Virus record (IMG/VR): IMGVR_UViG_2778261577_000002
Location: 1 to 9,532 of that record
From: a virus
Lineage: Duplodnaviria > Heunggongvirae > Uroviricota > Caudoviricetes
Reading direction: 5' to 3' (one strand)
DNA length: 9,532 nucleotides
Position 1 is the stretch's first letter. Each line of letters opens with the position of its first letter. Position numbers and translations under genes: made by a program. The notes below the pieces were generated by a model that saw only the letters and a program-made list of their open reading frames with translations, was not told where the DNA came from and ran no database searches. Shown piece after piece: positions 1-9,532 of the stretch.

Positions 1-55
1 AGTCATCGGGCATTATCTGAACATAAAACACTATCAATAAGTTGGAGTCATTACC
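1..55 (+). mobile_element. IS1: IS1 right-end fragment: last insB codons (2-40, ...KVIGHYLNIKHYQ*) plus terminal inverted repeat ending GGAGTCATTACC at 55
   Basis: Recognised by recall as the canonical IS1 3' terminus; frame 2..40 translates to the InsB C-terminus with TAA at 38-40; the element is cut by the window edge. Confidence 0.93.
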
Positions 56-376
56 CAATAGTTGTATTGAATCACTGACGAGACAGCCTCATATTTATCA
101 GGACTGGTGTGCGTCTAATACAGGGGGTTGTCGTGCTGGTTCTCAAATGTGCGCTGGCTATTGCGGCTGTAATGGCAATTTATTGTCTTGCTGTTGTTCT
201 TATGGAGCGGCTTTCTGATTGATTACATACTGGCTAGAAAAAAGGTGTTACCTTGGTTTATCTTTGTCCGGCAAGGTGCGCTCATTAATCTTAAGTAAAT
301 TTATTGCTCAAGTATTCAGATTACTTCTTATGGTTGAAGTCTCCTGTCAATGTAGAACCAATATATTTACAAAAAT

Positions 377-406
377 GAGACCCGTCGGGGATAGCCCTGC
401 CGGGTC
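377..406 (-). terminator. Rho-independent terminator downstream of the minus-strand YeaR-like gene
   Basis: Inverted repeat AGACCCG...CGGGTCT (377-383 / 400-406) forms a GC-rich hairpin; on the minus strand it is followed by a T-run (complement of CAAAAATG at about 369-376), just past the CDS stop at 437-439. Confidence 0.55.
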
Positions 407-436
407 TGACGGTTAAAGCATTTTTAATATGATCAT

Positions 437-775
437 CTATTTTTTGGTGCTATAGACTTTTTCGCCCGAGAAGTCTGGAGCGACCCAAAAGTTAATATTA
501 AACTGAGCATCATCGCTTAGTTCAACACGGTGCCAGTATTGTGGTGGGCTTGTTGCAAAAGCGCCAGCATTAATGACTACTTTTATCTCCGGTTCAGTAG
601 CATTCTCATCAGTAAAACCATAATATGTTACAGTGCCTTCCATTACGCACAACTGCCCAAAAACACCTGCTGCTGTATTATGATGTGTTAATAACGCTGA
701 AGGTACGTTCTCTTTTGTGAAGAACGGAGTTGAGCGTTTGATTACCCAATCTTTAGGAATTCTCTTGTGTGTCAT
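437..775 (-). CDS. YeaR-like DUF1971-family protein (small cupin-like, TehB-N-terminal-related), 112 aa
   Basis: Six-frame ORF 437..799(-); recalled similarity to E. coli YeaR along the whole length (KRSTPF, VMxG, EP, AGxFA, PP, WH, FNI blocks). Start placed at the internal ATG 775-773 (MTHKRIP...) because a strong SD GAGGAGGTGG lies about 6 nt upstream on the minus strand; the ATG at 799 has no SD. Confidence 0.8.
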   Translation of the reverse strand: MTHKRIPKDWVIKRSTPFFTKENVPSALLTHHNTAAGVFGQLCVMEGTVTYYGFTDENATEPEIKVVINAGAFATSPPQYWHRVELSDDAQFNINFWVAPDFSGEKVYSTKK

Positions 776-790
776 AACCACCTCCTCAAA

Positions 791-813
791 AACATGCATT
801 ATAAATGCGTGTT
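791..813. promoter_or_regulatory. Imperfect palindrome AACATGCATTA-T-AAATGCGTGTT resembling an NsrR (Rrf2-family) operator, overlapping a minus-strand TATAAT (798-803) just upstream of the YeaR-like gene
   Basis: Both half-sites match the recalled 11-1-11 NsrR consensus (AAnATGCATTT n AAATGCATnTT) with one mismatch each. The minus strand reads GCATTTATAATGCAT, so a perfect -10 hexamer sits inside the palindrome. A perfect TTGACA lies 21 nt further upstream on the minus strand, which is non-canonical spacing. Confidence 0.4.
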
Positions 814-1100
814 TTTGAGGGTTATGTCAAGCTGTTATGAAACACATAATTGATATGTTGATTAGAGGAGAAGATATAATAAATATGGTTGTTTTTCGTA
901 TAACTATTTGTTTTACTTTTAGTTTATGCATTCTGTGTGTTAGGAATAAGTTATTAAAGTTTAATCAAAAAATCTCGATGTAGTCCACATAGATTATTGT
1001 TACTGAACCTTATTGTGTGTATTAGTTGTGTTCTGAAATTTCAGCTTAATTATTTATGATGTATTTTTTAACGATAAATATTTTCCCAGGATACCTTTAC

Positions 1101-1127
1101 TGTGTATATAAATAAATTATATACACA
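1101..1127. repeat. Perfect 10-bp inverted repeat TGTGTATATA-(7 nt)-TATATACACA in the AT-rich intergenic region
   Basis: Read directly: 1101-1110 is the reverse complement of 1118-1127, with spacer AATAAAT. Candidate operator or protein-binding site; function unknown. Confidence 0.5.
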
Positions 1128-1502
1128 TAAATAATGTAAAGGCGTCCTTTTAGATATATCTTATCAAATGTTAATGACTTGAGTGGGAAATATGATTCCA
1201 GCAACTTATCATGTGGCTACTTTATAAAAATAATGCCCATATAAAACAACAAGCGAAAAGGATTACGGATAAAAAAGGAGCGAGATGTGCGAACTTGTTA
1301 TTTTCCATGTTTAACCACCTTAAATAATTGATGATGACGGGATGATTGCATCTGTAATGCTTTTATTGAAATGTTATGATAAAAAAGAACTTTTGCATAA
1401 CATTAAAATGTAATTTATCTAATCGTTTTTAATAATAAATGTCGTATTTCTATCCTTGTACCAGCTATTTGATATGTAGTGTTTGTTCATGCTATGTGGG
1501 GC

Positions 1503-1530
1503 TTTACACCATAGCCAGTTTATTTATACT
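1503..1530 (+). promoter_or_regulatory. Candidate sigma70 promoter for the DUF1367-YbcO-Q block (-35 TTTACA, 16-bp spacer, -10 TATACT)
   Basis: TTTACA at 1503-1508 and TATACT at 1525-1530, about 60 bp upstream of the ATG at 1589. Sequence match only. Confidence 0.3.
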
Positions 1531-1588
1531 TTATTCGTCAGCCTGAACAACTGGCATCTGTTGCGCTGCGCCATCGAGAGATTGAGAA

Positions 1589-2188
1589 ATGGCGCATATA
1601 CAACTGGTCAAACAAACCTCTTCTGGTTTACTTCTCCCGGCGACGCCGGAGAGTTGCGATTTTCTGCATCAAATCAAAATAGGTGAGTGGATACACGCAG
1701 ACTTTAAGCGTGTGCGTAACTACGCATTCCACAAGCGTTTTTTCAAACTCCTGCAACTGGGATTCGATTACTGGACTCCGGTCGGTGGGGCGATCACACC
1801 TCGCGAACGAGAACTGCTGTCTGGTTTCGTGGATTACTTGTGCGAATCAGTTGGTCGGGAACACACACCAGCCCTGAGTGATGCCGCAGAGCAATATCTA
1901 AATACAGTTGCGACACGCAGAACTCGGGATACGGCATTGCTAAAGTCGTTTGAGGCTTTCCGCGAGTGGGTAACCATTCAGGCCGGATTTTACACCGAGC
2001 ATATTTATCCGGACGGTAGCCGTGGGCGCAGGGCGAAATCCATCGCGTTTGCGAATATGGACGAAACCGAGTTTCAGCAGGTTTATAAATCTGTTCTGAA
2101 TGTGCTGTGGAACTGGATTCTGTTCCGTAAATTCTCCTCTCAGGAGGAAGTTGAAAATGTGGCCGCACAACTACTGGAGTTTGCGTAA
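1589..2188 (+). CDS. Conserved lambdoid-prophage protein, probably DUF1367 family (199 aa), function unknown
   Basis: Clean 199-aa ORF whose stop overlaps the next gene's start (TAATG at 2186-2190). The family assignment is from recall of the DUF1367-DUF1364-Q arrangement in E. coli prophages, not from a search. Confidence 0.7.
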   Translation: MAHIQLVKQTSSGLLLPATPESCDFLHQIKIGEWIHADFKRVRNYAFHKRFFKLLQLGFDYWTPVGGAITPRERELLSGFVDYLCESVGREHTPALSDAAEQYLNTVATRRTRDTALLKSFEAFREWVTIQAGFYTEHIYPDGSRGRRAKSIAFANMDETEFQQVYKSVLNVLWNWILFRKFSSQEEVENVAAQLLEFA

Positions 2189-2478
2189 TGGTGAATTTAC
2201 GTAAAGCGGCTAAAGGCCAGATGTGCCAGATCAGAATCCCTGGCTACTGCAATCACAATCCCGAAACCTCTGTGCTGGCGCATTACAGGCTGGCGGGGAC
2301 GTGCGGAACAGCGACAAAACCACACGATATGCAGGCAGCGATTGCCTGTAGCTCATGCCACGATTTAATCGACGGGCGGGTAAAAACCAGCGATTACACC
2401 AAAGAAGAATTACGCCTGATGCATGCAGAAGGTGTTTTTCGCACACAAGAAATCTGGAGAAAGGAAGGTTATTTATGA
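2188..2478 (+). CDS. ybcO: YbcO-like DUF1364-family protein (putative phage nuclease), 96 aa
   Basis: Recalled near-colinear similarity to DLP12 YbcO (RKAAxGxxCQxRIPGxCNxNPETSVLAH...TKP...IACSxCHD). Start overlaps the upstream stop (TAATG); stop overlaps the downstream start (ATGA at 2475-2478). Confidence 0.85.
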   Translation: MVNLRKAAKGQMCQIRIPGYCNHNPETSVLAHYRLAGTCGTATKPHDMQAAIACSSCHDLIDGRVKTSDYTKEELRLMHAEGVFRTQEIWRKEGYL

Positions 2479-3017
2479 TTTACCCAACAAATACAGGCAA
2501 AAGCGGGGAACACCTTCGTCTCACCACGCTGGAAAGTGTCTGGATTCAGGGAAAACTGCGCATGTGGGGGCGCTGGTCGTATATTGGCGGCGGTAAGACG
2601 GGAAATATGTTTAACCAGTTGCTGGCATCCAAAAAATTGACGAAAACAGCCGTCAATGAAGCCCTGCGCAGGATGAAAAAAGCGGGAATAGAGAAACCTG
2701 AGCTGGAAGCGTTTTTGCGAGAGATGATCAATGGCAAGCAAAAGACCTGGCTGGCGCATTGTACTGATGCAGAGGCGTTATGTATTGATAGAGTCATAAG
2801 TGAGGTGCTGGCAAAACACCCAGGATTGATTTGTATCCTCCGGCAACGATATGAAGGGAGGGGGATGACTAAGCGTAAAATGGCTGAATTGCTGAATGAT
2901 GCACATCCTGAGTGGTGTTTTAGCACATGCGAAAAGCGAATTGCTAATTGGTTAGCCGTTGCTGAATATGCCCTGTATATTCCCATGCGAGAATCATTTG
3001 CTCAAAAAATAGCTTGA
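2475..3017 (+). CDS. Putative late-gene antiterminator Q (non-lambda, possibly phage-21-type family), 180 aa
   Basis: ATG 2475 is preceded by AGGAAGG and overlaps the YbcO stop. Position is the canonical Q slot: after the nin-like genes and before a tR'-like terminator, tRNAs and the lysis cassette. No CxxC zinc motif as in lambda or 82 Q. The assignment is by synteny and size, not by a recognised motif. Confidence 0.6.
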   Translation: MIYPTNTGKSGEHLRLTTLESVWIQGKLRMWGRWSYIGGGKTGNMFNQLLASKKLTKTAVNEALRRMKKAGIEKPELEAFLREMINGKQKTWLAHCTDAEALCIDRVISEVLAKHPGLICILRQRYEGRGMTKRKMAELLNDAHPEWCFSTCEKRIANWLAVAEYALYIPMRESFAQKIA

Positions 3018-3101
3018 TTTTTTACGCATAAATTGCTTCAATTCCGGTATGCTTCGCAAAGCTGTATCGCGAGGCGAACCAAGCGCATGAACTTTACCAG
3101 A

Positions 3102-3130
3102 ACCCGCCATTGAGCGGGTTTTGTTGTTTC
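3102..3130 (+). terminator. Rho-independent terminator (tR'-like) downstream of the Q gene
   Basis: Hairpin ACCCGC-cattga-GCGGGT (3102-3119) followed by TTTGTTGTTTC, about 85 bp after the Q stop. This is where lambdoid phages carry pR' and tR'. Confidence 0.6.
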
Positions 3131-3170
3131 TGGGGGGGCATTTCGTTAAATGAAGCTGTGTTGTGCGCAA

Positions 3171-3210
3171 TTAGCTAATAACACGAATCGTGAATGTATA
3201 TAATGCGCTT
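3171..3210 (+). promoter_or_regulatory. Candidate stable-RNA-type promoter upstream of the tRNAs (-10 TATAAT at 3199-3204 followed by a GCGC discriminator)
   Basis: TATAATGCGC resembles the rRNA/tRNA promoter -10 plus GC-rich discriminator, and the upstream DNA is AT-rich. No good -35 at 16-18 bp spacing, so confidence is low. The tRNAs could instead be read from pR'. Confidence 0.3.
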
Positions 3211-3351
3211 GTTCCTTCGATGGTGTATTCGAATAACGGATTACTGAATACAGCTATCCCATTAAGGGAACACCGCCATCTGCTCATCGGGAAGAGCCGA
3301 CCATCATTTAAGTGGTAGGTGTGAGATTCGATACCTCGGTGGCGGTTCTGT

Positions 3352-3427
<76 letters not shown>

Positions 3428-3430
3428 TAT

Positions 3431-3505
<75 letters not shown>

Positions 3506-3781
3506 GCATTTGAAATAAGCCTTATTGTATTGCAGCACTGGCGTATTTTTATTACGTGGGAGCAGGTTGTTTCGAAAAAGCATTCTGTTCTCTGGCTATG
3601 ATTTGAGGCCAGGTGTAGCCTCAGTGCTGATTTTTTTACGGCAGCAGAATGGTGCATTATCGGTGGAGATTTTGTATTTCCTGGCAGGGCCGGTGATGTG
3701 CCATCCCGATGTTGTAAACATCGCTAAAAATGACATTGAGATTAATCATATACTAAGCAAAACCTGGAAATACATCCTTTA

Positions 3782-3807
3782 CCGCCTCCACCGGGCGGTT
3801 TTTTTTA
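3782..3807 (+). terminator. Rho-independent terminator in the Q-to-S interval
   Basis: CCGCC-tccacc-GGGCGG hairpin (3782-3798) followed directly by a run of nine T (3799-3807). Confidence 0.6.
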
Positions 3808-4190
3808 TTCTGAACCCTAAAAAAAGAAACACGGACACTGATAATGCCCGTGTGGCAATGCCATGTAAGTTAGCGATGAATATGGCGCAAAAAAAGCGCG
3901 GCCGTCGGATTAACGCCGCGGGACAAAGTCCATGAAGAATCATAAGTATTGGCCCCCTTCTGGGACATGTTCATACTACTAAGCTTCAGAAGTGGTTTAA
4001 ATCATCAAATTAACCTTAATTTTCGATAAGTCTTATTTCATTTCTTTGCGCCACATCTGGCGCGCATCAAATAACGCCACGCAAAGGGCATCTGCGGATG
4101 CCGGTGCTTTTGACGGGGTGTTTTTTACGGGCCGCTGGTGGCCATTTTTTGTTTCCATTACACAGCGCCCGCATCTGCGAGGTGGGGGTT

Positions 4191-4406
4191 ATGAAATCCA
4201 TGGATAAGTTAACAACGGGTGTCGCCTATGGCACCTCCGCAGGCAGTGCTGGCTACTGGTTTTTACAGTTGCTCGATAGAGTAACTCCGTCACAGTGGGC
4301 TGCAATCGGTGTGCTGGGTAGTCTGGTTTTTGGCCTGCTGACGTACCTGACAAACCTTTATTTCAAGATTAAAGAAGATAAGCGCAAGGCTGCGAGAGGT
4401 GAATAA
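4191..4406 (+). CDS. S: Phage-21-type class II holin (pinholin S21-like) with dual-start motif MKSMDK, 71 aa
   Basis: Strong recalled similarity to S21/EssD ([25 protein letters not shown]...[14 protein letters not shown]...[20 protein letters not shown]). SD GAGGTGGGGG upstream of ATG 4191. The six-frame ORF 4098..4406 extends upstream, but the homologous start is 4191. Stop TAA overlaps the endolysin ATG. Confidence 0.93.
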
Positions 4407-4903
4407 TGCCTCCATCATTACGAAAAGCCGTTGCTGCTGCTATTGGTGGCGGAGCAATTGCTATAGCATCAGTGTTAATCACTGGCCCAAGTGGTAACGA
4501 TGGTCTGGAAGGTGTCAGCTACATACCATACAAAGATATTGTTGGTGTATGGACTGTATGTCACGGGCATACAGGAAAAGACATCATGCTCGGTAAAACG
4601 TATACCAAAGCAGAATGCAAAGCACTCTTGAATAAAGACCTTGCCACTGTCGCCAGACAAATTAACCCGTACATCGAAGTCGATATACCGGAAACAACGC
4701 GCGGCGCTCTTTACTCATTCGTTTACAACGTGGGTGCTGGCAATTTCAGAACATCGACGCTTCTTCGCAAAATAAACCAGGGCGATATCAAAGGCGCATG
4801 TGATCAGCTACGTCGCTGGACATATGCTGGCGGTAAGCAATGGAAAGGTCTCATGACTCGTCGTGAGATTGAGCGTGAAATCTGTTTGTGGGGTCAGCAA
4901 TGA
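4406..4903 (+). CDS. R: SAR endolysin (phage 21 R21-like lysozyme, T4-lysozyme fold with N-terminal signal-anchor-release domain), 165 aa
   Basis: N-terminal Gly/Ala-rich weakly hydrophobic SAR segment ([20 protein letters not shown]) followed by a lysozyme core with the catalytic E...D...T spacing ([18 protein letters not shown]). Strong recalled similarity to R21/RrrD. Start overlaps the holin stop (TAATG); stop overlaps the Rz start (ATGA). Confidence 0.93.
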
Positions 4904-5365
4904 ACAGAGTAACCGCGATTATCTCCGCTCTGGTTATCTGCATCATCGTCTGCCTGTCATGGGCTGTTAATCATTAACGTGATAACGCCATTACCTACAA
5001 AGCCCAGCGCGACAAAAATGCCAGAGAACTGAAGCTGGCGAACGCGGCAATTACTGACATGCAGATGCGCCAGCGTGATGTTGCTGCACTGGATGAAAAA
5101 TACACGAAGGAGTTAGCTAATGCGAAAGCTGAAAATGATGCTCTGCGTGATGATGTTGCCGCTGGTCGTCGTCGGTTGCACATCAAAGCAGTCTGTCAGT
5201 CAGTGCGTGAAGCCACCACCGCCTCCGGCGTGGATAATGCAGCCTCCCCCCCGACTGGCAGACACCGCTGAACGGGATTATTTCACCCTCCGGGAACGAC
5301 TGGTAATGATGCAGGCCCAACTTGAAGGTGCTCAGCAATACATAACCGAACAGTGTTTAAAGTAA
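4900..5365 (+). pseudogene. Rz: Rz (i-spanin) pseudogene: in-frame TAA at codon 26 (4975-4977) plus a +1 frameshift in a C7 tract (about 5246-5252)
   Basis: The frame from ATG 4900 gives [25 protein letters not shown] then TAA where lambda-type Rz has Tyr. The same frame continues with Rz-like sequence ([34 protein letters not shown]...[24 protein letters not shown]) until the C-run, after which the Rz C-terminus ([17 protein letters not shown]...) is only readable in the +1 frame. Confidence 0.85.
5120..5365 (+). pseudogene. Rz1: Rz1 (o-spanin lipoprotein) reading frame embedded in Rz; signal peptide and lipobox are intact, but the frame is shifted into the Rz C-terminus by the C7 tract
   Basis: ORF 5120..5365 starts with a typical Rz1 N-terminus ([20 protein letters not shown]...[16 protein letters not shown]) and then reads [11 protein letters not shown]..., which is Rz sequence. 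With six C instead of seven the frame would read ...[20 protein letters not shown], a canonical Rz1 end. Confidence 0.75.
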
Positions 5366-5502
5366 AATCTTAACTACAATATGATTCATTTTGATGATTG
5401 TTTCATAAGGAACAGTGAAGTAAGATCTAAGAGGAGTTAAATTTTATACAGTATAATCATAATATTGCAGCAAGGTGGTTATAATTGAAAGAATATTTAG
5501 AT

Positions 5503-6960
5503 ATGAATACATCTCATGTAAGAGTTGTTACTCATATGTGTGGGTTTCTGGTTTGGCTCTATAGTCTTTCAATGTTGCCACCAATGGTTGTAGCATTGTT
5601 TTATAAAGAAAAAAGCCTGTTCGTTTTCTTTATAACTTTCGTTATGTTTTTTTGCATTGGTGGCGGAGCGTGGTATACAACTAAGAAATCTGGCATTCAA
5701 TTACGTACCCGTGATGGGTTTATTATAATTGTAATGTTTTGGATTTTGTTTTCTGTTATTAGTGCATTCCCTTTATGGATTGACTCAGAACTTAATTTAA
5801 CGTTCATTGATGCTCTGTTTGAAGGGGTTTCTGGAATAACAACAACAGGAGCAACTGTAATTGATGATGTTAGTTCATTACCTCGGGCATATTTGTACTA
5901 TCGGTCACAGTTAAATTTTATAGGTGGTTTAGGAGTTATTGTTCTGGCGGTTGCTGTATTGCCATTATTGGGTATTGGTGGTGCAAAGCTTTATCAGTCA
6001 GAAATGCCGGGGCCATTTAAGGATGACAAACTCACTCCCCGCCTGGCCGATACGTCACGGACACTGTGGATAACTTATTCTTTATTAGGTATTGCTTGTA
6101 TTGTCTGTTATAGACTTGCAGGAATGCCTTTGTTTGATGCTATTTGTCACGGGATTTCCACAGTTTCGCTTGGTGGTTTCTCAACTCATAGCGAGAGTAT
6201 CGGATATTTTAATAACTATTTGGTTGAGCTGGTGGCTGGTTCTTTTTCCCTGCTATCGGCTTTCAACTTCACTCTTTGGTATATTGTTATTAGCAGGAAA
6301 ACGATAAAACCTTTAATCAGAGATATTGAACTTCGTTTCTTTCTGTTAATAGCCTTAGGGGTGATCATTGTTACCTCTTTCCAGGTCTGGCATATAGGTA
6401 TGTATGACTTGCATGGAAGTTTTATTCATTCGTTTTTTCTTGCCAGCTCCATGCTCACTGATAATGGTTTAGCTACGCAGGATTATGCAAACTGGCCCAC
6501 GCACACGATAGTGTTTTTGCTGTCGTCAAGTTTCTTTGGGGGATGTATAGGTTCAACTTGTGGTGGAATTAAGTCACTTCGATTTCTTATACTTTTCAAA
6601 CAAAGCAAACACGAGATAAATCAGCTTTCTCATCCCAGAGCGTTGTTGAGTGTAAATGTAGGAGGGAAGATAGTTACAGATCGTGTAATGAGGTCTGTAT
6701 GGAGTTTCTTTTTTCTTTATACTCTCTTCACGGTGTTTTTTATACTGGTGTTAAATGGTATGGGATATGATTTTCTTACATCATTTGCAACAGTGGCTGC
6801 ATGTATTAATAATATGGGATTAGGTTTTGGGGCTACTGCATCGTCATTCGGAGTGCTTAATGACATTGCAAAATATTTAATGTGCATAGCTATGATTCTT
6901 GGTCGCCTTGAAATTTATCCTGTTATTATATTGTTTTCAGGTTTTTTTTGGCGCTCCTAA
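5503..6960 (+). CDS. trkG: TrkH/TrkG-family potassium uptake membrane protein (Rac prophage trkG-like), 485 aa from ATG 5503
   Basis: Long polytopic membrane ORF, recognised by recall as near-identical to E. coli K-12 TrkG (MNTSHVRVVTHMCGFLVWLYSLSMLPP...). AT-rich compared with its neighbours. An in-frame TTG at 5485 with a well-spaced SD (AGGTGG, 5473-5478) is an alternative start. Confidence 0.93.
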   Translation: MNTSHVRVVTHMCGFLVWLYSLSMLPPMVVALFYKEKSLFVFFITFVMFFCIGGGAWYTTKKSGIQLRTRDGFIIIVMFWILFSVISAFPLWIDSELNLTFIDALFEGVSGITTTGATVIDDVSSLPRAYLYYRSQLNFIGGLGVIVLAVAVLPLLGIGGAKLYQSEMPGPFKDDKLTPRLADTSRTLWITYSLLGIACIVCYRLAGMPLFDAICHGISTVSLGGFSTHSESIGYFNNYLVELVAGSFSLLSAFNFTLWYIVISRKTIKPLIRDIELRFFLLIALGVIIVTSFQVWHIGMYDLHGSFIHSFFLASSMLTDNGLATQDYANWPTHTIVFLLSSSFFGGCIGSTCGGIKSLRFLILFKQSKHEINQLSHPRALLSVNVGGKIVTDRVMRSVWSFFFLYTLFTVFFILVLNGMGYDFLTSFATVAACINNMGLGFGATASSFGVLNDIAKYLMCIAMILGRLEIYPVIILFSGFFWRS

Positions 6961-7046
6961 TATATGGCTGATTTATAATTGTGAGTTTAATATTATGTTG
7001 ACTCACTCATTGATCCAATACCTAACTTTACCAGCAACCCCTCCGT

Positions 7047-7080
7047 CCCCAGTAGCACTGGCTGCTGGGGTGCGTTTTAT
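7047..7080 (+). terminator. Possible terminator after trkG
   Basis: Hairpin CCCCAG...CTGGGG (7047-7052 / 7065-7070) followed by TGCGTTTTATT. The T-run is interrupted, so this is weak. Confidence 0.3.
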
Positions 7081-7097
7081 TCATAAAGCAAGGCTGT

Positions 7098-7889
7098 ATG
7101 AGCGAGAAATTAAAGATAGTCTATCGCCCATTACAAGAATTGCCACCGTATGCGCACAACGCCAGGACGCACAGCCCTGAGCAGGTGGCACAACTGGTAG
7201 AAAGTATTAAGCAATTCGGCTGGACTAATCCGGTGCTGATTGACGAAAAGGGCGAAATTATTGCGGGTCACGGTCGTGTTATGGCGGCTGAAATGCTCAA
7301 AATGGATTCTGTTCCGGTCATTGTTCTGTCTGGCCTGACGGATGAGCAGAAAAAGGCGTACCGCCTGGCAGATAATCGCCTGCCGATGAATGCTGGCTGG
7401 GATGAAGATCTGTTGCGGATGGAGCTGTCGGACCTAATCAATGCTGATTTTGATGTCTCCCTGACAGGCTTCATCCCGACAGAAATTGATGAACTGTTGA
7501 CGGATGTTTTGCCCGGTACAGGAAATGAGGAGGAGCCGTATACGACGAAAATTGATACGCCTGTTTATGAGCCGTCGGGCGGTAAACCGGATATCAGTGA
7601 ACTGTACGACGATACGAAAACTCAGGAGCTGATCAGCCGGATACGTTCGGCGTCCCTTGAGCCTGATATTGAGAAATTCCTCCTGTGTGCGGCAGAACGT
7701 CACACGGTGTTTAATTTCAGCAGAATTGCGGACTATTACGCTCACGCCCCCGCTGAAATCCAGTGTTTTTTCGAGGAGTCGGCGCTGGTGATCATTGATT
7801 ATCAGCAGGCTATTGAAAATGGATTTGTCCGGATGACGCAGCGCATGGTGGAGATCATGCATGGTGGTGAGGAGGAGGAATATGCGTGA
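7098..7889 (+). CDS. ParB-like nuclease-domain (ParB/Srx superfamily) protein with an uncharacterised acidic C-terminal domain, 263 aa
   Basis: N-terminal about 120 aa has the ParB-N architecture (conserved ...NARTHSPEQV...L..SI...GW.NPVLID..GEIIAGHGR..AA motif). The C-terminal part has no methyltransferase motifs and ends GGEEEEYA. The stop TGA (7887-7889) overlaps the downstream start. Related to K-12 Rac ynaK by position. Confidence 0.8.
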   Translation: MSEKLKIVYRPLQELPPYAHNARTHSPEQVAQLVESIKQFGWTNPVLIDEKGEIIAGHGRVMAAEMLKMDSVPVIVLSGLTDEQKKAYRLADNRLPMNAGWDEDLLRMELSDLINADFDVSLTGFIPTEIDELLTDVLPGTGNEEEPYTTKIDTPVYEPSGGKPDISELYDDTKTQELISRIRSASLEPDIEKFLLCAAERHTVFNFSRIADYYAHAPAEIQCFFEESALVIIDYQQAIENGFVRMTQRMVEIMHGGEEEEYA

Positions 7890-8814
7890 TGATTTTTGCG
7901 CCTTTATTCTGACTCACGGGCGACCGGACAAAGTTCTGACTTACCGGACGTTGCGTCGTGCTGGCTATACCGGGAAAATTTTTATCGTTGTTGATGATGA
8001 AGATAAGACACGGCATCAGTACATGGCTGAATTTGGTGAACAGGTGCTGGTGTTTTCCAAAGCCGATATCGCCAGTCGTTTTGACGAAGCCGATAATTTC
8101 TGTGACCGCCGCTCAATTTTTTACGCCCGTAATGCCTGTTTCGACCAGGCAAAACTGGTCGGGTGTAAATACTTCATTCAGCTCGATGATGATTATCACG
8201 AGTTCCAGTTTCGGGTGGATCGCAACTATGACCAGGCCTATTTTCCGATAAGGAAACTGGATGCGATCCTTTCTGAAATGCTGGCGTACTACGAATCAAT
8301 ACCTGCTCTTTCCATCGCTATGTCGCAGGGAGGGGATTTTCTTGGTGACAATGGCGGCCATGCTTCGTGGGTGAAACGCAAGGCAATGAACAGCTTTATC
8401 TGTTCGGTTGATCGACCGTTCTCATTCATGGGGCGCATTAACGAGGATGTGAATACGTACACGAATCTCGGTCGCTGTGGTGAATTGTTTATGACGATCG
8501 GTGCTGTCCAGTTAGGGCAGAAACAGACGCAGAAAAACAGCGGCGGAATGACCGAGCTGTATCTGGATTCCGGAACCTACGTTAAAAGTTTTTACTCCGT
8601 CATGTATGCGCCGTCGTGCGTAAAAATCTCACTGATGGGTGCCAGCCATAAACGCATTCACCATCAGGTCACCTGGAACAACGCTGCAGTAAAAATCCTT
8701 CACGAAAAATACAGGAAGAAGACACCCTGCATATCAATGGGGGTGACAAATGATTCCGTATTCGAAAGTCGAGTCTCTGGCAGCGTGCCGGATGACTGCA
8801 CAACAAATCGCTGA
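7882..8814 (+). CDS. Uncharacterised protein with a GT-A-like nucleotide-sugar transferase signature (N-terminal beta-strand CAFILTHGRP, FIVVDDED, DxD-type motif QLDDDYHEF), 310 aa from ATG 7882
   Basis: The ORF is open from 7861. ATG 7882 is preferred because GAGGAGGAGG lies 5-6 nt upstream and it overlaps the ParB-like stop by 8 nt, suggesting translational coupling; ATG 7861 with SD GGTGGAG is a possible alternative. The fold call is a motif-based inference, not a database match. Confidence 0.7.
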   Translation: MRDDFCAFILTHGRPDKVLTYRTLRRAGYTGKIFIVVDDEDKTRHQYMAEFGEQVLVFSKADIASRFDEADNFCDRRSIFYARNACFDQAKLVGCKYFIQLDDDYHEFQFRVDRNYDQAYFPIRKLDAILSEMLAYYESIPALSIAMSQGGDFLGDNGGHASWVKRKAMNSFICSVDRPFSFMGRINEDVNTYTNLGRCGELFMTIGAVQLGQKQTQKNSGGMTELYLDSGTYVKSFYSVMYAPSCVKISLMGASHKRIHHQVTWNNAAVKILHEKYRKKTPCISMGVTNDSVFESRVSGSVPDDCTTNR

Positions 8815-9001
8815 CGTTCTGGATGTTGATCTGAACCGACTGAAAGAAAATCGGGAAGCAATGACAGATTTTTATGCGGCCATCCGTAAGGGCAGAGCGA
8901 AAGGTGAAGCCGAGTTACGAGCGGCATTGTTTAAGCTTGCCAGAAAAGGGGATGCCTTTGCTCTGCGCGAACTACTCAGGGTGGATAAAAATCAGGACTA
9001 A
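8750..9001 (+). CDS. Small helix-turn-helix protein (83 aa), possibly a packaging-associated DNA-binding protein
   Basis: ORF with SD GGGGGTGA upstream of ATG 8750. HTH-like segment MTAQQIADVLDVDLNRLKE. Overlaps the 3' end of the upstream gene by 65 nt in another frame. Sits immediately upstream of the terminase-like fragment. Confidence 0.5.
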   Translation: MIPYSKVESLAACRMTAQQIADVLDVDLNRLKENREAMTDFYAAIRKGRAKGEAELRAALFKLARKGDAFALRELLRVDKNQD

Positions 9002-9004
9002 CTG

Positions 9005-9178
9005 ATGAGCAGACCGGACTGGGGGGCGTTGCAGCAGGAGTATATTGCTGAATACACCCGCTCCGGTATATCTCCGGTGGCATGGTGTGAAGCAAGGGGA
9101 CTGAATTACGCAACAGCCCGTCGTTACATCAAAAAAACTCCGAAAAATGCGCAGACAGAAATGTGCAAAACTGGGTGA
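9005..9178 (+). pseudogene. N-terminal fragment (57 codons) of a probable terminase small subunit or HTH packaging protein, truncated by IS1 insertion
   Basis: ATG 9005 gives MSRPDWGALQQEYIAEYTRSGISPVAWCEARGLNYATARRYIKK..., resembling the N-terminal HTH of phage small terminase subunits. The frame runs into the IS1 left inverted repeat and ends at a TGA (9176-9178) contributed by the IS1 terminus GGTGATG. Confidence 0.5.
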
Positions 9179-9532
9179 TGCTGCCAACTTACTGATTTAG
9201 TGTATGATGGTGTTTTTGAGGTGCTCCAGTGGCTTCTGTTTCTATCAGCTGTCCCTCCTGTTCAGCTACTGACGGGGTGGTGCGTAACGGCAAAAGCACC
9301 GCCGGACATCAGCGCTATCTCTGCTCTCACTGCCGTAAAACATGGCAACTGCAGTTCACTTACACCGCTTCTCAACCCGGTACGCACCAGAAAATCATTG
9401 ATATGGCCATGAATGGCGTTGGATGCCGGGCAACAGCCCGCATTATGGGCGTTGGCCTCAACACGATTTTCCGCCATTTAAAAAACTCAGGCCGCAGTCG
9501 GTAACCTCGCGCATACAGCCGGGCAGTGACGT
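9174..9532 (+). mobile_element. IS1: IS1 left end (IRL GGTGATGCTGCCAACTTACTGAT) through insA and into the insA/insB junction; truncated by the window edge
   Basis: Recognised by recall as the canonical IS1 5' terminus; same orientation as the IS1 fragment at 1-55. Confidence 0.95.
9229..9504 (+). CDS. insA: IS1 InsA (transposition inhibitor / N-terminal part of the InsAB' transposase), 91 aa, GTG start
   Basis: Translation [91 protein letters not shown] matches IS1 InsA as recalled, apart from one residue (IFRH here, ILRH in the copy I remember). Confidence 0.96.

Follow-up and report, generated by a model that had tools for sequence, protein, structure and literature searches.

What fills the gap between the tRNA genes and the holin gene of a lambdoid prophage when no protein gene can be recognised there? 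The question is raised by positions 3506-4190 of a 9,532-nucleotide stretch of viral DNA (positions 1 to 9,532 of IMG/VR record IMGVR_UViG_2778261577_000002, Caudoviricetes), here called the window, which is a Rac-type lambdoid prophage of Escherichia coli. An initial annotation made from the sequence alone had delimited this interval, and the tRNA ends called by ARAGORN and Rfam, together with the ATG of an essD-type holin gene at 4191, show that it is exactly the gap between tRNA-Gly(UCC) and the holin, its last base immediately preceding the ATG. The interval probably represents non-coding RNA cargo in the moron slot that extends from Q and pR' to the lysis cassette, in the form of three modules that move separately: module A (3506-3806, plus strand), module B (about 3816-4001, minus strand) and module C (4048-4151, plus strand). 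RNA structure is conserved strand-specifically in module A and, less strongly, in module B; module A is linked to tRNA genes; terminator motifs are present; and there is no conserved open reading frame (ORF). The earlier description of the interval as gene-poor is accurate in that there is no protein gene, but misleading if, as proposed here, the slot holds non-coding genes. Its suggestion of a small RNA (sRNA) or of regulatory structures for late transcription is favoured by the comparative evidence.

Module A, which in the window has a short form of 301 nucleotides (3506-3806), is a predicted structured 3' trailer of the prophage tRNA operon, and is composed, in order, of domain 1, a U-run, domain 2, an AU-rich tail and an intrinsic terminator. 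Domain 1 (3533-3629) is a four-way junction in which a closing helix, CAGCACUG (3533-3540) with CAGUGCUG (3622-3629), surrounds three hairpins. Domain 2 (3635-3718), the universal core of the family, is an irregular, G·U-rich hairpin of 84 nucleotides (UUUACGGCA...GAAUGGUGCAUUAUCGGUGGAG...CCGGUGAUGUGCCAUC...UGUUGUAAA) with an asymmetric internal loop containing the near-invariant, unpaired CCUGGCAGGG (3680-3689), the sequence of which is kept while the helices beside the loop vary. The tail (3719-3780), which is mostly unstructured, leads to the intrinsic terminator of the tRNA/trailer unit (3781-3806; stem ACCGCC..GGCGGU and a U-run; -11.1 kcal/mol, z = -3.1), whose stem is kept and whose loop is variable in all copies. 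Most copies have a long form, in which a third, multi-branched domain of ~90 nucleotides replaces the AU-rich tail, and the lengths across both forms are 300-390 nucleotides. The third domain was seen in the relatives L003, L004, L005, L007, L024 and others (for example L138, 2611-2720), and its closing helix has apparent compensatory changes (GAGGUGU/ACACCUC versus GAGGCG/CGCCUC). E. coli 042 and LY180 are carriers of the long form.

The predicted fold of positions 3506-3812 has a free energy of -96.7 kcal/mol, with z = -3.63 on the plus strand versus -1.34 on the minus strand, and the z-scores of module A copies range from -3.1 to -5.9. Two alignments were examined: A1, with 27 unique sequences and an RNAalifold consensus, and A2, with 23 unique sequences of the core hairpin (domain 2), including four more divergent copies that were added. 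The A1 consensus has 56 pairs, with 97.5% of cells paired and double-sided changes in 15 pairs versus 5.7 in shuffles (reached in none of 500), and that of A2 has 34 pairs, with 97.8% of cells paired and double-sided changes in 9 pairs versus 2.3 in shuffles (none of 500 reaching 9); the shuffle controls overstate the significance of these counts, and the covariation statistics are inflated, because all copies are from Escherichia and the sequences are related. When the partners were slid by 1-3 columns, only 31-52% of cells in A1 were paired, and 34-56% in the corresponding controls for A2. Within domain 1, helices 1-4 are 92-98% paired, with double-sided changes in 11 of 22 pairs.

The pairing is also specific to one strand. 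Domain 1 is 95.2% paired on the plus strand versus 80.8% when mirrored on the minus strand; domain 2 is 97.8% versus 76.6%, with G-U pairs in 21.9% of cells; and for module A overall the values are 97.5-97.8% versus 76.6-79.0%. Pairing that is far better on the plus strand, with about one-fifth of cells occupied by G-U, therefore indicates an RNA structure of the plus strand rather than a DNA feature or a minus-strand RNA. In module A, pairs are kept on one strand by compensatory and G-U-preserving changes, which is the mark by which a structured non-coding RNA is recognised. A closing helix around three hairpins, followed by a long hairpin, was obtained in separate minimum free energy folds of the window and of six relatives (L005b, L006, L007, L008, L116 and L138), and in L003 the closing helix of domain 1 was partly formed; the inner domain 1 sequences of L006 and L005b cannot be aligned with that of the window.

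In 27 of the 27 unique copies collected, module A starts directly after tRNA-Gly(UCC), the last gene of an array of two to four tRNAs, and this linkage is independent of the type of Q, the upstream gene and the type of holin. A divergent copy of domain 2 (L135) follows a Met/Ile-Lys tRNA array. Module A was found in 394 of 5426 complete E. coli genomes (~7%), at up to five matching places per genome. Beyond E. coli, a species-level genome scan found it only in E. ruysiae, with two hits in metagenome-assembled genomes attributable to chance; the search pattern was strict, and the breadth may be underestimated. A 14-mer scan of viral contigs gave mostly chance hits, with 32 of 120 loci real after a blastn filter, and a second viral scan with a looser pattern contributed one additional subtype only. 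Rfam searches of the entire window, of the interval (E<=10) and of five diverse relatives detected only tRNAs above threshold, and thus no family for module A; the generic matches below threshold were to CyaR (in the AU-rich tail; 23.6 bits, the gathering score being 47), to sroB and, on the long hairpin, to a miRNA-precursor model. Neither ARAGORN nor the tRNA model called domain 1 as a tRNA-like or decayed tRNA sequence. A T-box-like UGG-CCA contact and a put-like antitermination RNA are further conjectures.

The constant position of module A raises an unlikely but serious alternative, namely that it acts only in cis, as an element of the tRNA or late transcript in which cleavage of the long hairpin by RNase III or RNase E detaches the tRNAs from the late mRNA downstream and the rest serves as a terminator or insulator. 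Domain 2 forms a near-continuous duplex of ~34 base pairs, a length typical of RNase III substrates; RNase III hairpins immediately follow a tRNA in metY-nusA of E. coli; and module A invariably adjoins the final tRNA of the array and has a terminator at its end. However, a processing site needs neither a conserved four-way junction, nor an invariant unpaired CCUGGCAGGG loop, nor the third domain that most copies possess, and for insulation a terminator alone would be enough. The size of module A, the invariance of its loop and the additional domain of most copies argue that it is more than a terminator.

There is no credible or conserved protein gene in the interval. The initial annotation had found no convincing ORF there and had noted that a 136-amino-acid ORF with a TTG start (3525-3935, plus strand) runs through a terminator hairpin, observations that were borne out. 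The open frame is real, and it crosses the hairpin ACCGCCTCCACCGGGCGGT (3781-3799) and its T-run to 3806, and three terminator hairpins in all. As a gene it was rejected: the frame is intact in window-type copies only, the relatives having net insertions or deletions that are not multiples of three. The longest plus-strand frame is 138 codons in the window and 50-76 codons in the examined relatives, except for 102 codons in L009, which diverges after the terminator; the C-terminus of the "protein" differs in L009 because the homology ends at the terminator. The T-run directly 3' of a GTG start varies from T6 to T8 among copies. Variable columns at codon positions 1, 2 and 3 number 44, 49 and 42 in 3525-3730, and 22, 20 and 21 in 3807-3935, with no third-position bias. 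A 41-amino-acid minus-strand ORF (4033-4158) was likewise rejected, with internal 5-nt, 6-nt and 1-nt insertions or deletions in relatives and no family match. The six ORFs that were tested had no match in PHROGs and, in Pfam at E<=1, a single chance-level match of a 66-amino-acid minus-strand ORF to a zinc finger (12.2 bits, E = 0.13, the curated cut-off being 24 bits).

Genome annotations are the one source of encouragement for small proteins at 3624-3935 (plus strand) and 4158-4033 (minus strand). The former, a 103-residue version of the 136-residue ORF made by the Prokaryotic Genome Annotation Pipeline (WP_001741616.1), and the latter (WP_001298832.1) are each a "hypothetical protein" in some RefSeq genomes, but these places are blank in most. 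Given the frame-breaking changes, the lack of codon-position bias, the restriction of the long ORF to one subtype, its passage through three terminator hairpins and the lack of Pfam and PHROGs matches, it is hardly credible that the interval encodes these proteins. Module A is at present either unannotated or labelled "hypothetical protein" in E. coli genomes, and this label should be dropped.

The tRNA-to-holin region is a mosaic. An alignment of the intervals from nine loci indicates that blocks recombine independently, and block matches in 383 genomes fell at positions 1-305, 117-305, 286-652 and 558-685 of the interval used as the query. The first ~300 nucleotides move with the tRNAs: they are found behind a DUF1133-type Q gene, another type of Q gene or a DNA methyltransferase gene, and before either essD/rrrD or an unrelated lysis cassette (holin/holin/M15 or GH108). 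In relatives, the slot after module A is occupied by subtilase-type AB5 toxin genes (in a Stx2a prophage) or by genes for TerB and DUF3927, LT-IIb toxin genes are located 3' of the lysis genes in the SerU-LTIIb phage, and at one locus the sRNA STnc100 is downstream of a copy of domain 2 (cargo-bearing loci: L136, 2803-4713; L008, 3328-4655; L137, 2961-3535; L005, 5219-6368; L135, 2986-3162). The proposal that this is where lambdoid phages usually carry cargo is therefore sound for the relatives that share the tRNA-linked element. The record of the SerU-LTIIb phage contains two tandem units (L005, 1122-2456 and 3028-4395), each consisting of tRNAs, module A, (modules B/C) and holin1, of which the first ends in a truncated holin; the unit can therefore duplicate as a block.

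Such a mosaic might also be expected of a neutral scar of lost cargo, with the hairpins as leftover terminators, a reading that had been offered for the interval from the outset. Besides the mosaic itself, the toxin or TerB genes in the slot of related prophages and a truncated relic of module B in the core genome are in its favour. It is nevertheless very improbable: 97-99% pairing is maintained strand-specifically through one-sided and double-sided changes, by compensation and by the preservation of G-U pairs, and the modules recur before different lysis cassettes and behind different Q genes across hundreds of genomes (7-10% of E. coli genomes).

The tRNA unit to which module A belongs looks autonomous, to judge from its sequence motifs. 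The -10 element TATATAAT (3197-3204, plus strand, outside the interval; TATAAT at 3199-3204) is part of a putative sigma70 promoter of the tRNA operon. Relatives have strong sigma70 motifs directly 5' of the first tRNA (TTGCAA-17-TATTAT in L006, 9 nucleotides before tRNA-Met, and TTGAAA-16-TAATAT in L007), and the -10 hexamers of these promoters align with 3199-3204 of the window. The genes that follow are a decayed tRNA-Lys(UUU) at ~3273-3348, between the putative promoter and tRNA-Thr, which neither ARAGORN nor Rfam calls and in the place of which relatives have intact Met/Ile and Lys tRNAs; tRNA-Thr(UGU) (3352-3427, plus strand, 73.8 bits in Rfam); and tRNA-Gly(UCC) (3431-3505, plus strand, 67.8 bits), with module A directly 3' of it. 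Both intact tRNAs were called by ARAGORN and Rfam. With a putative promoter, tRNAs, a structured trailer and a predicted terminator, the unit is built like a moron in the sense of PMC4104026. That the first 300 nucleotides of the interval are part of a tRNA transcription unit, and that a minus-strand unit converges on it, are points beyond the initial annotation, as are the hairpin and T6 at 4130-4151, two minus-strand terminators and the structured stretch at 3533-3718.

Terminators are concentrated in this region: a scan of positions 2900-4500 found 6 terminator-like sites versus 1.7 +/- 1.5 in shuffles. Within the interval, a G+C-rich stem followed by a U-run is present at 3781-3806 on the plus strand and at 3853-3816 and 3920-3890 on the minus strand, and in a weak form at 4130-4151 on the plus strand. 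A separate terminator that immediately follows Q (3099-3123; -16.1 kcal/mol, z = -4.5) is likely tR'. It closes a block of ~100 nucleotides directly 3' of Q (3018-3125), which is conserved among relatives that have this Q and probably corresponds to the short transcript from pR' with tR'; another type of Q is followed by an analogous block, and the position is that of PasD, StxS and the lambda 6S RNA. The arrangement resembles the pR'-6S RNA-tR' region of lambda, where only a polymerase modified by Q overrides the terminators that precede S-R-Rz, and differs from that late leader in that the terminators of the interval are 3' of an inserted tRNA unit and additional to tR'.

Module B is a predicted convergent sRNA-like gene that, with its promoter, occupies about 3816-4001 on the minus strand. 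The putative promoter (3973-4001) consists of a -35 hexamer TTTAAA (4001-3996), a 17-nucleotide spacer and a -10 hexamer TAGTAT (3978-3973). The predicted RNA (3816-3966) would be ~77 nucleotides long to the first terminator (~3890) and ~150 nucleotides long to the second (~3816). It would begin with a 5' hairpin, GUCCC-AGAA-GGGGGC (3952-3966). The first terminator (3890-3920; -12.3 kcal/mol) has the stem CGCGGC..GCCGCG (3920-3897) and U7 (3896-3890); the second (3816-3853; -14.5 kcal/mol, z = -4.2) has a stem at 3853-3829 followed by UUUCUUUUUUU, and is back to back with the terminator of module A.

Structure conservation in module B is strand-specific in the same direction as its predicted transcription, with weaker support than in module A. 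RNAalifold gave a minus-strand consensus of 28 pairs, which are 99.8% paired and of which 6 have double-sided changes; mirrored on the plus strand, these pairs are 94.0% paired. The fold has z = -2.7. The mismatches of its hairpins on the plus strand are G-U pairs on the minus strand, and the 5' hairpin pairs perfectly, with G-U, on the minus strand only. In L006 and L039 this hairpin is compensated (GUCUCC..GGAGAC versus GUCCCC/GGGGGC), and the stem of the first terminator is compensated in L003-type copies (from C-G to U-A), the forms of this stem in the subtypes being CGCGGC/GCCGCG and CGCGGUC/GACCGCG. Both promoter hexamers and ~50 nucleotides upstream are kept in all variants and in the core-genome relic, with a -10 hexamer of TAATAT in L006, and the first ~40 transcribed nucleotides are variable.

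A search with positions 3812-4000 matched 5417 of 5426 E. coli genomes, owing to the relic or paralogue of module B in the spacer between serU (a tRNA-Ser gene) and yodB. What the relic has in common with module B is the promoter region together with the hairpins of the 3' part (GGACUUUGUCC and the first terminator); the 5' transcribed part of ~40 nucleotides is different. In E. coli O16:H48 it is at 1492-1664 of locus L147, unannotated and homologous to 3888-3933 and 3994-4035 of the window. Rfam has no family for it, a literature search yielded no report of an sRNA in the serU-yodB spacer, and the tables of RNA interaction by ligation and sequencing (RIL-seq) for enteropathogenic E. coli (EPEC) have no entry. 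The presence of the relic in K-12-type strains offers a cheap experimental entry point to module B.

Module C (4048-4151, plus strand) is a hairpin leader of the lysis cassette and is read here as terminator-bearing, from the arrangement of its predicted hairpins at 4048-4063 and 4087-4102, where two further hairpins had been noted before, and of a terminator-like hairpin at 4130-4143 with U6. It immediately precedes the start codons of holin genes from two unrelated families, and was found in 524 of 5426 E. coli genomes and, in part, in phiP27 and an Actinobacillus phage. Several lambdoid phages have a match to positions 4137-4187 in front of the holin gene; the matching stretch of phage Ayreon is overlapped at its start by an annotated "terminator", a short distance upstream of that holin gene. 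In the RNAalifold consensus for module C, a long-range pairing takes precedence over three separate hairpins, which would fit a conditional attenuator of Q-independent lysis-gene expression, possibly with a contribution from module A, in which GCCAC (4051-4055) pairs with GUGGC (4138-4142) in competition with the terminator hairpin. The homologous lysis cassette of DLP12 is reported to respond to RpoE, Hha and Q (PMC7918800). Attenuation is nonetheless improbable, as there is one covarying pair, no ligand or factor is indicated, and the single-sequence fold has a modest z of -2.0.

Several observations weigh against non-coding RNA cargo, in addition to the relatedness of the copies. The transcripts, their ends, their processing and their stability are inferred from sequence, and the promoters of the tRNA unit and module B are predicted from motif conservation: the -35 of the tRNA promoter is poor in the window, and a consensus scan of the window detected, at its thresholds, no sigma70 promoter for either unit. 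In the most divergent variants, the apparent conservation of domain 1 rests on separate minimum free energy folds. A search for targets of the AU-rich tail, which covered the translation-initiation regions of the window as well as module B, found none: the best duplex scored at the mean of the shuffles, in an output that seemed unreliable. A 1-nucleotide deletion at 3962 in the window (GGG versus GGGG, compare L001, 4956-4960) weakens or shortens the 5' hairpin of module B; copies that do not have it are otherwise 99.9% identical to the window. Module C is 95.6% paired on the plus strand versus 81.6% when mirrored on the minus strand, with its single covarying pair, and its last hairpin is weak in the window copy (-7.5 kcal/mol, z = -0.5).

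If the interval is non-coding RNA cargo, the following course of events may be envisaged. In the lysogen, the tRNA promoter (~3199-3204) would drive transcription of the decayed tRNA-Lys, tRNA-Thr, tRNA-Gly and the trailer, which would stop at 3806. Processing by RNase P and of the RNase E type would free the tRNAs and, with them, either the trailer as a stable RNA or only a shorter fragment from its 3' side, and the 3' part of module A may resemble a generic Hfq-binding sRNA, as the CyaR and sroB matches below threshold would suggest. The stacked terminators (3806 and 4151) and the antisense RNA of module B would keep S-R-Rz silent and block leakage. Upon induction, Q-modified RNA polymerase from pR' would pass tR' (3099-3123), the tRNAs and all of the terminators into the lysis genes. 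Stacked terminators and a convergent RNA bear on how lysis genes are kept silent in a lysogen during expression of cargo in the late region. The slot carries Shiga, LT-II-linked and subtilase-type toxins in relatives, and therefore these elements may influence the timing of toxin production and lysis.

By sequence or model, module A is a member of none of the known families with which it was compared. The "species 1 and 2" RNAs of T4 (rnaC/rnaD), at the end of the T4 tRNA cluster, are a further precedent, being stable, co-transcribed with the phage tRNAs and cut from the same precursor; the phage and the sequence are unrelated. The E. coli 3'ETS-leuZ RNA is an sRNA sponge from a tRNA 3' external spacer, which Lalaouna reportedly described in 2015. 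Module A is also located between the last tRNA of an operon and an intrinsic terminator; however, 3'ETS-leuZ has ~50 nucleotides and is unstructured but for the terminator, whereas module A has 300-390 nucleotides and two or three conserved domains. The leuZ spacer RNA is listed as 3'ESTleuZ in PMC8550237 (table S2).

Lambdoid prophages of enterohaemorrhagic E. coli have convergent sRNA pairs of the AgvB/AsxR family at a moron site 3' of PR' (Tree et al. 2014, PMC4104026), and in this prophage anti-sRNA family the promoter and 3' end are conserved and the 5' end is variable (PMC4104026). The interval is similar in its site between Q/PR' and the lysis genes, in having two units that converge on back-to-back terminators, and in the conserved 3' part and variable 5' part of module B and its relic. 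It differs in that the plus-strand partner is a structured RNA of 300 nucleotides fused to tRNAs, not an sRNA of 51-60 nucleotides, and neither AgvB (RF02702) nor AsxR (RF02703) matched the interval in Rfam at E<=10. PasA and PasC of EPEC are antisense sRNAs between an upstream sialate esterase cargo gene and the holin or its former position (PMC8550237 table S6; bioRxiv 10.64898/2026.05.13.724894), and in PasA, with forms of 85 and 236 nucleotides, two terminators in tandem produce one major and one minor 3' end (Pearl Mizrahi 2021, PMC8550237; Zhu, Shabalina and Storz 2026 preprint). Module B would likewise be antisense, upstream of a holin, with two predicted forms of ~77 and ~150 nucleotides; PasA and PasC are preceded by a sialate esterase gene, not a tRNA array. 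Comparison by blastn with PasA, PasC and PasD2, the Pas sRNAs extracted from EPEC NC_011601, gave chance-level matches only.

ROOL and GOLLD are large ornate RNAs of prophages and phages that are often found beside tRNA islands (PMC5737381; PMC12286853), and module A resembles them in being next to tRNA genes in a prophage. It is, however, about half their size or less and restricted to Escherichia, whereas ROOL and GOLLD exceed 500 nucleotides and have multistem junctions and pseudoknots; their Rfam models matched neither the window nor five diverse relatives, and no pseudoknots were found in module A. A bolder and rather doubtful proposal is that module A represents a new class of structured RNA whose function is tied to the tRNAs of the phage. 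It would be the counterpart of ROOL and GOLLD in enterobacteria, a free RNA of 300-390 nucleotides that recognises a partner through the invariant CCUGGCAGGG loop, and module B would belong to an sRNA family with an unrecognised serU-side copy in almost every E. coli genome. Candidate roles for such a module A are to protect or modulate phage tRNAs, to counter host defences that target tRNAs, or to sequester a host factor. A conserved RNA of two or three domains that is co-transcribed with prophage tRNAs would, if true, add to the few tRNA-linked RNAs known from phages, and would do so in a well-studied species that is open to genetic work.

The surroundings of the interval are those of a Rac-type prophage, with the gene order DUF1367, DUF1364 (YbcO-like), DUF1133-type Q antiterminator (ending at 3017), tRNA-Thr, tRNA-Gly, the interval, essD, rrrD lysozyme, Rz/Rz1, trkG, ynaK and, at the right end of the window, IS1. 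The right border of the interval is marked by the Shine-Dalgarno sequence GGUGGGGG and the ATG of the essD-type holin gene (4181-4193, plus strand). Many E. coli chromosomes contain near-identical copies, as does phage record vB_EcoS-683R6, and ATCC 8739 contains the entire interval with 99.4% identity. The potassium transporter gene trkG (5485-6960) is cargo located directly after Rz/Rz1, as in Rac of K-12. The same trkG arrangement is found in phage record vB_EcoS-683R6, and the region may therefore be part of an inducible phage rather than a dead remnant. There are signs of IS1 activity near the prophage: insA of IS1 closes the window (9229-9504), and in one strain an IS1B is located between Q and the tRNAs (L002, 334-1031), where it would sever the late operon from pR'.

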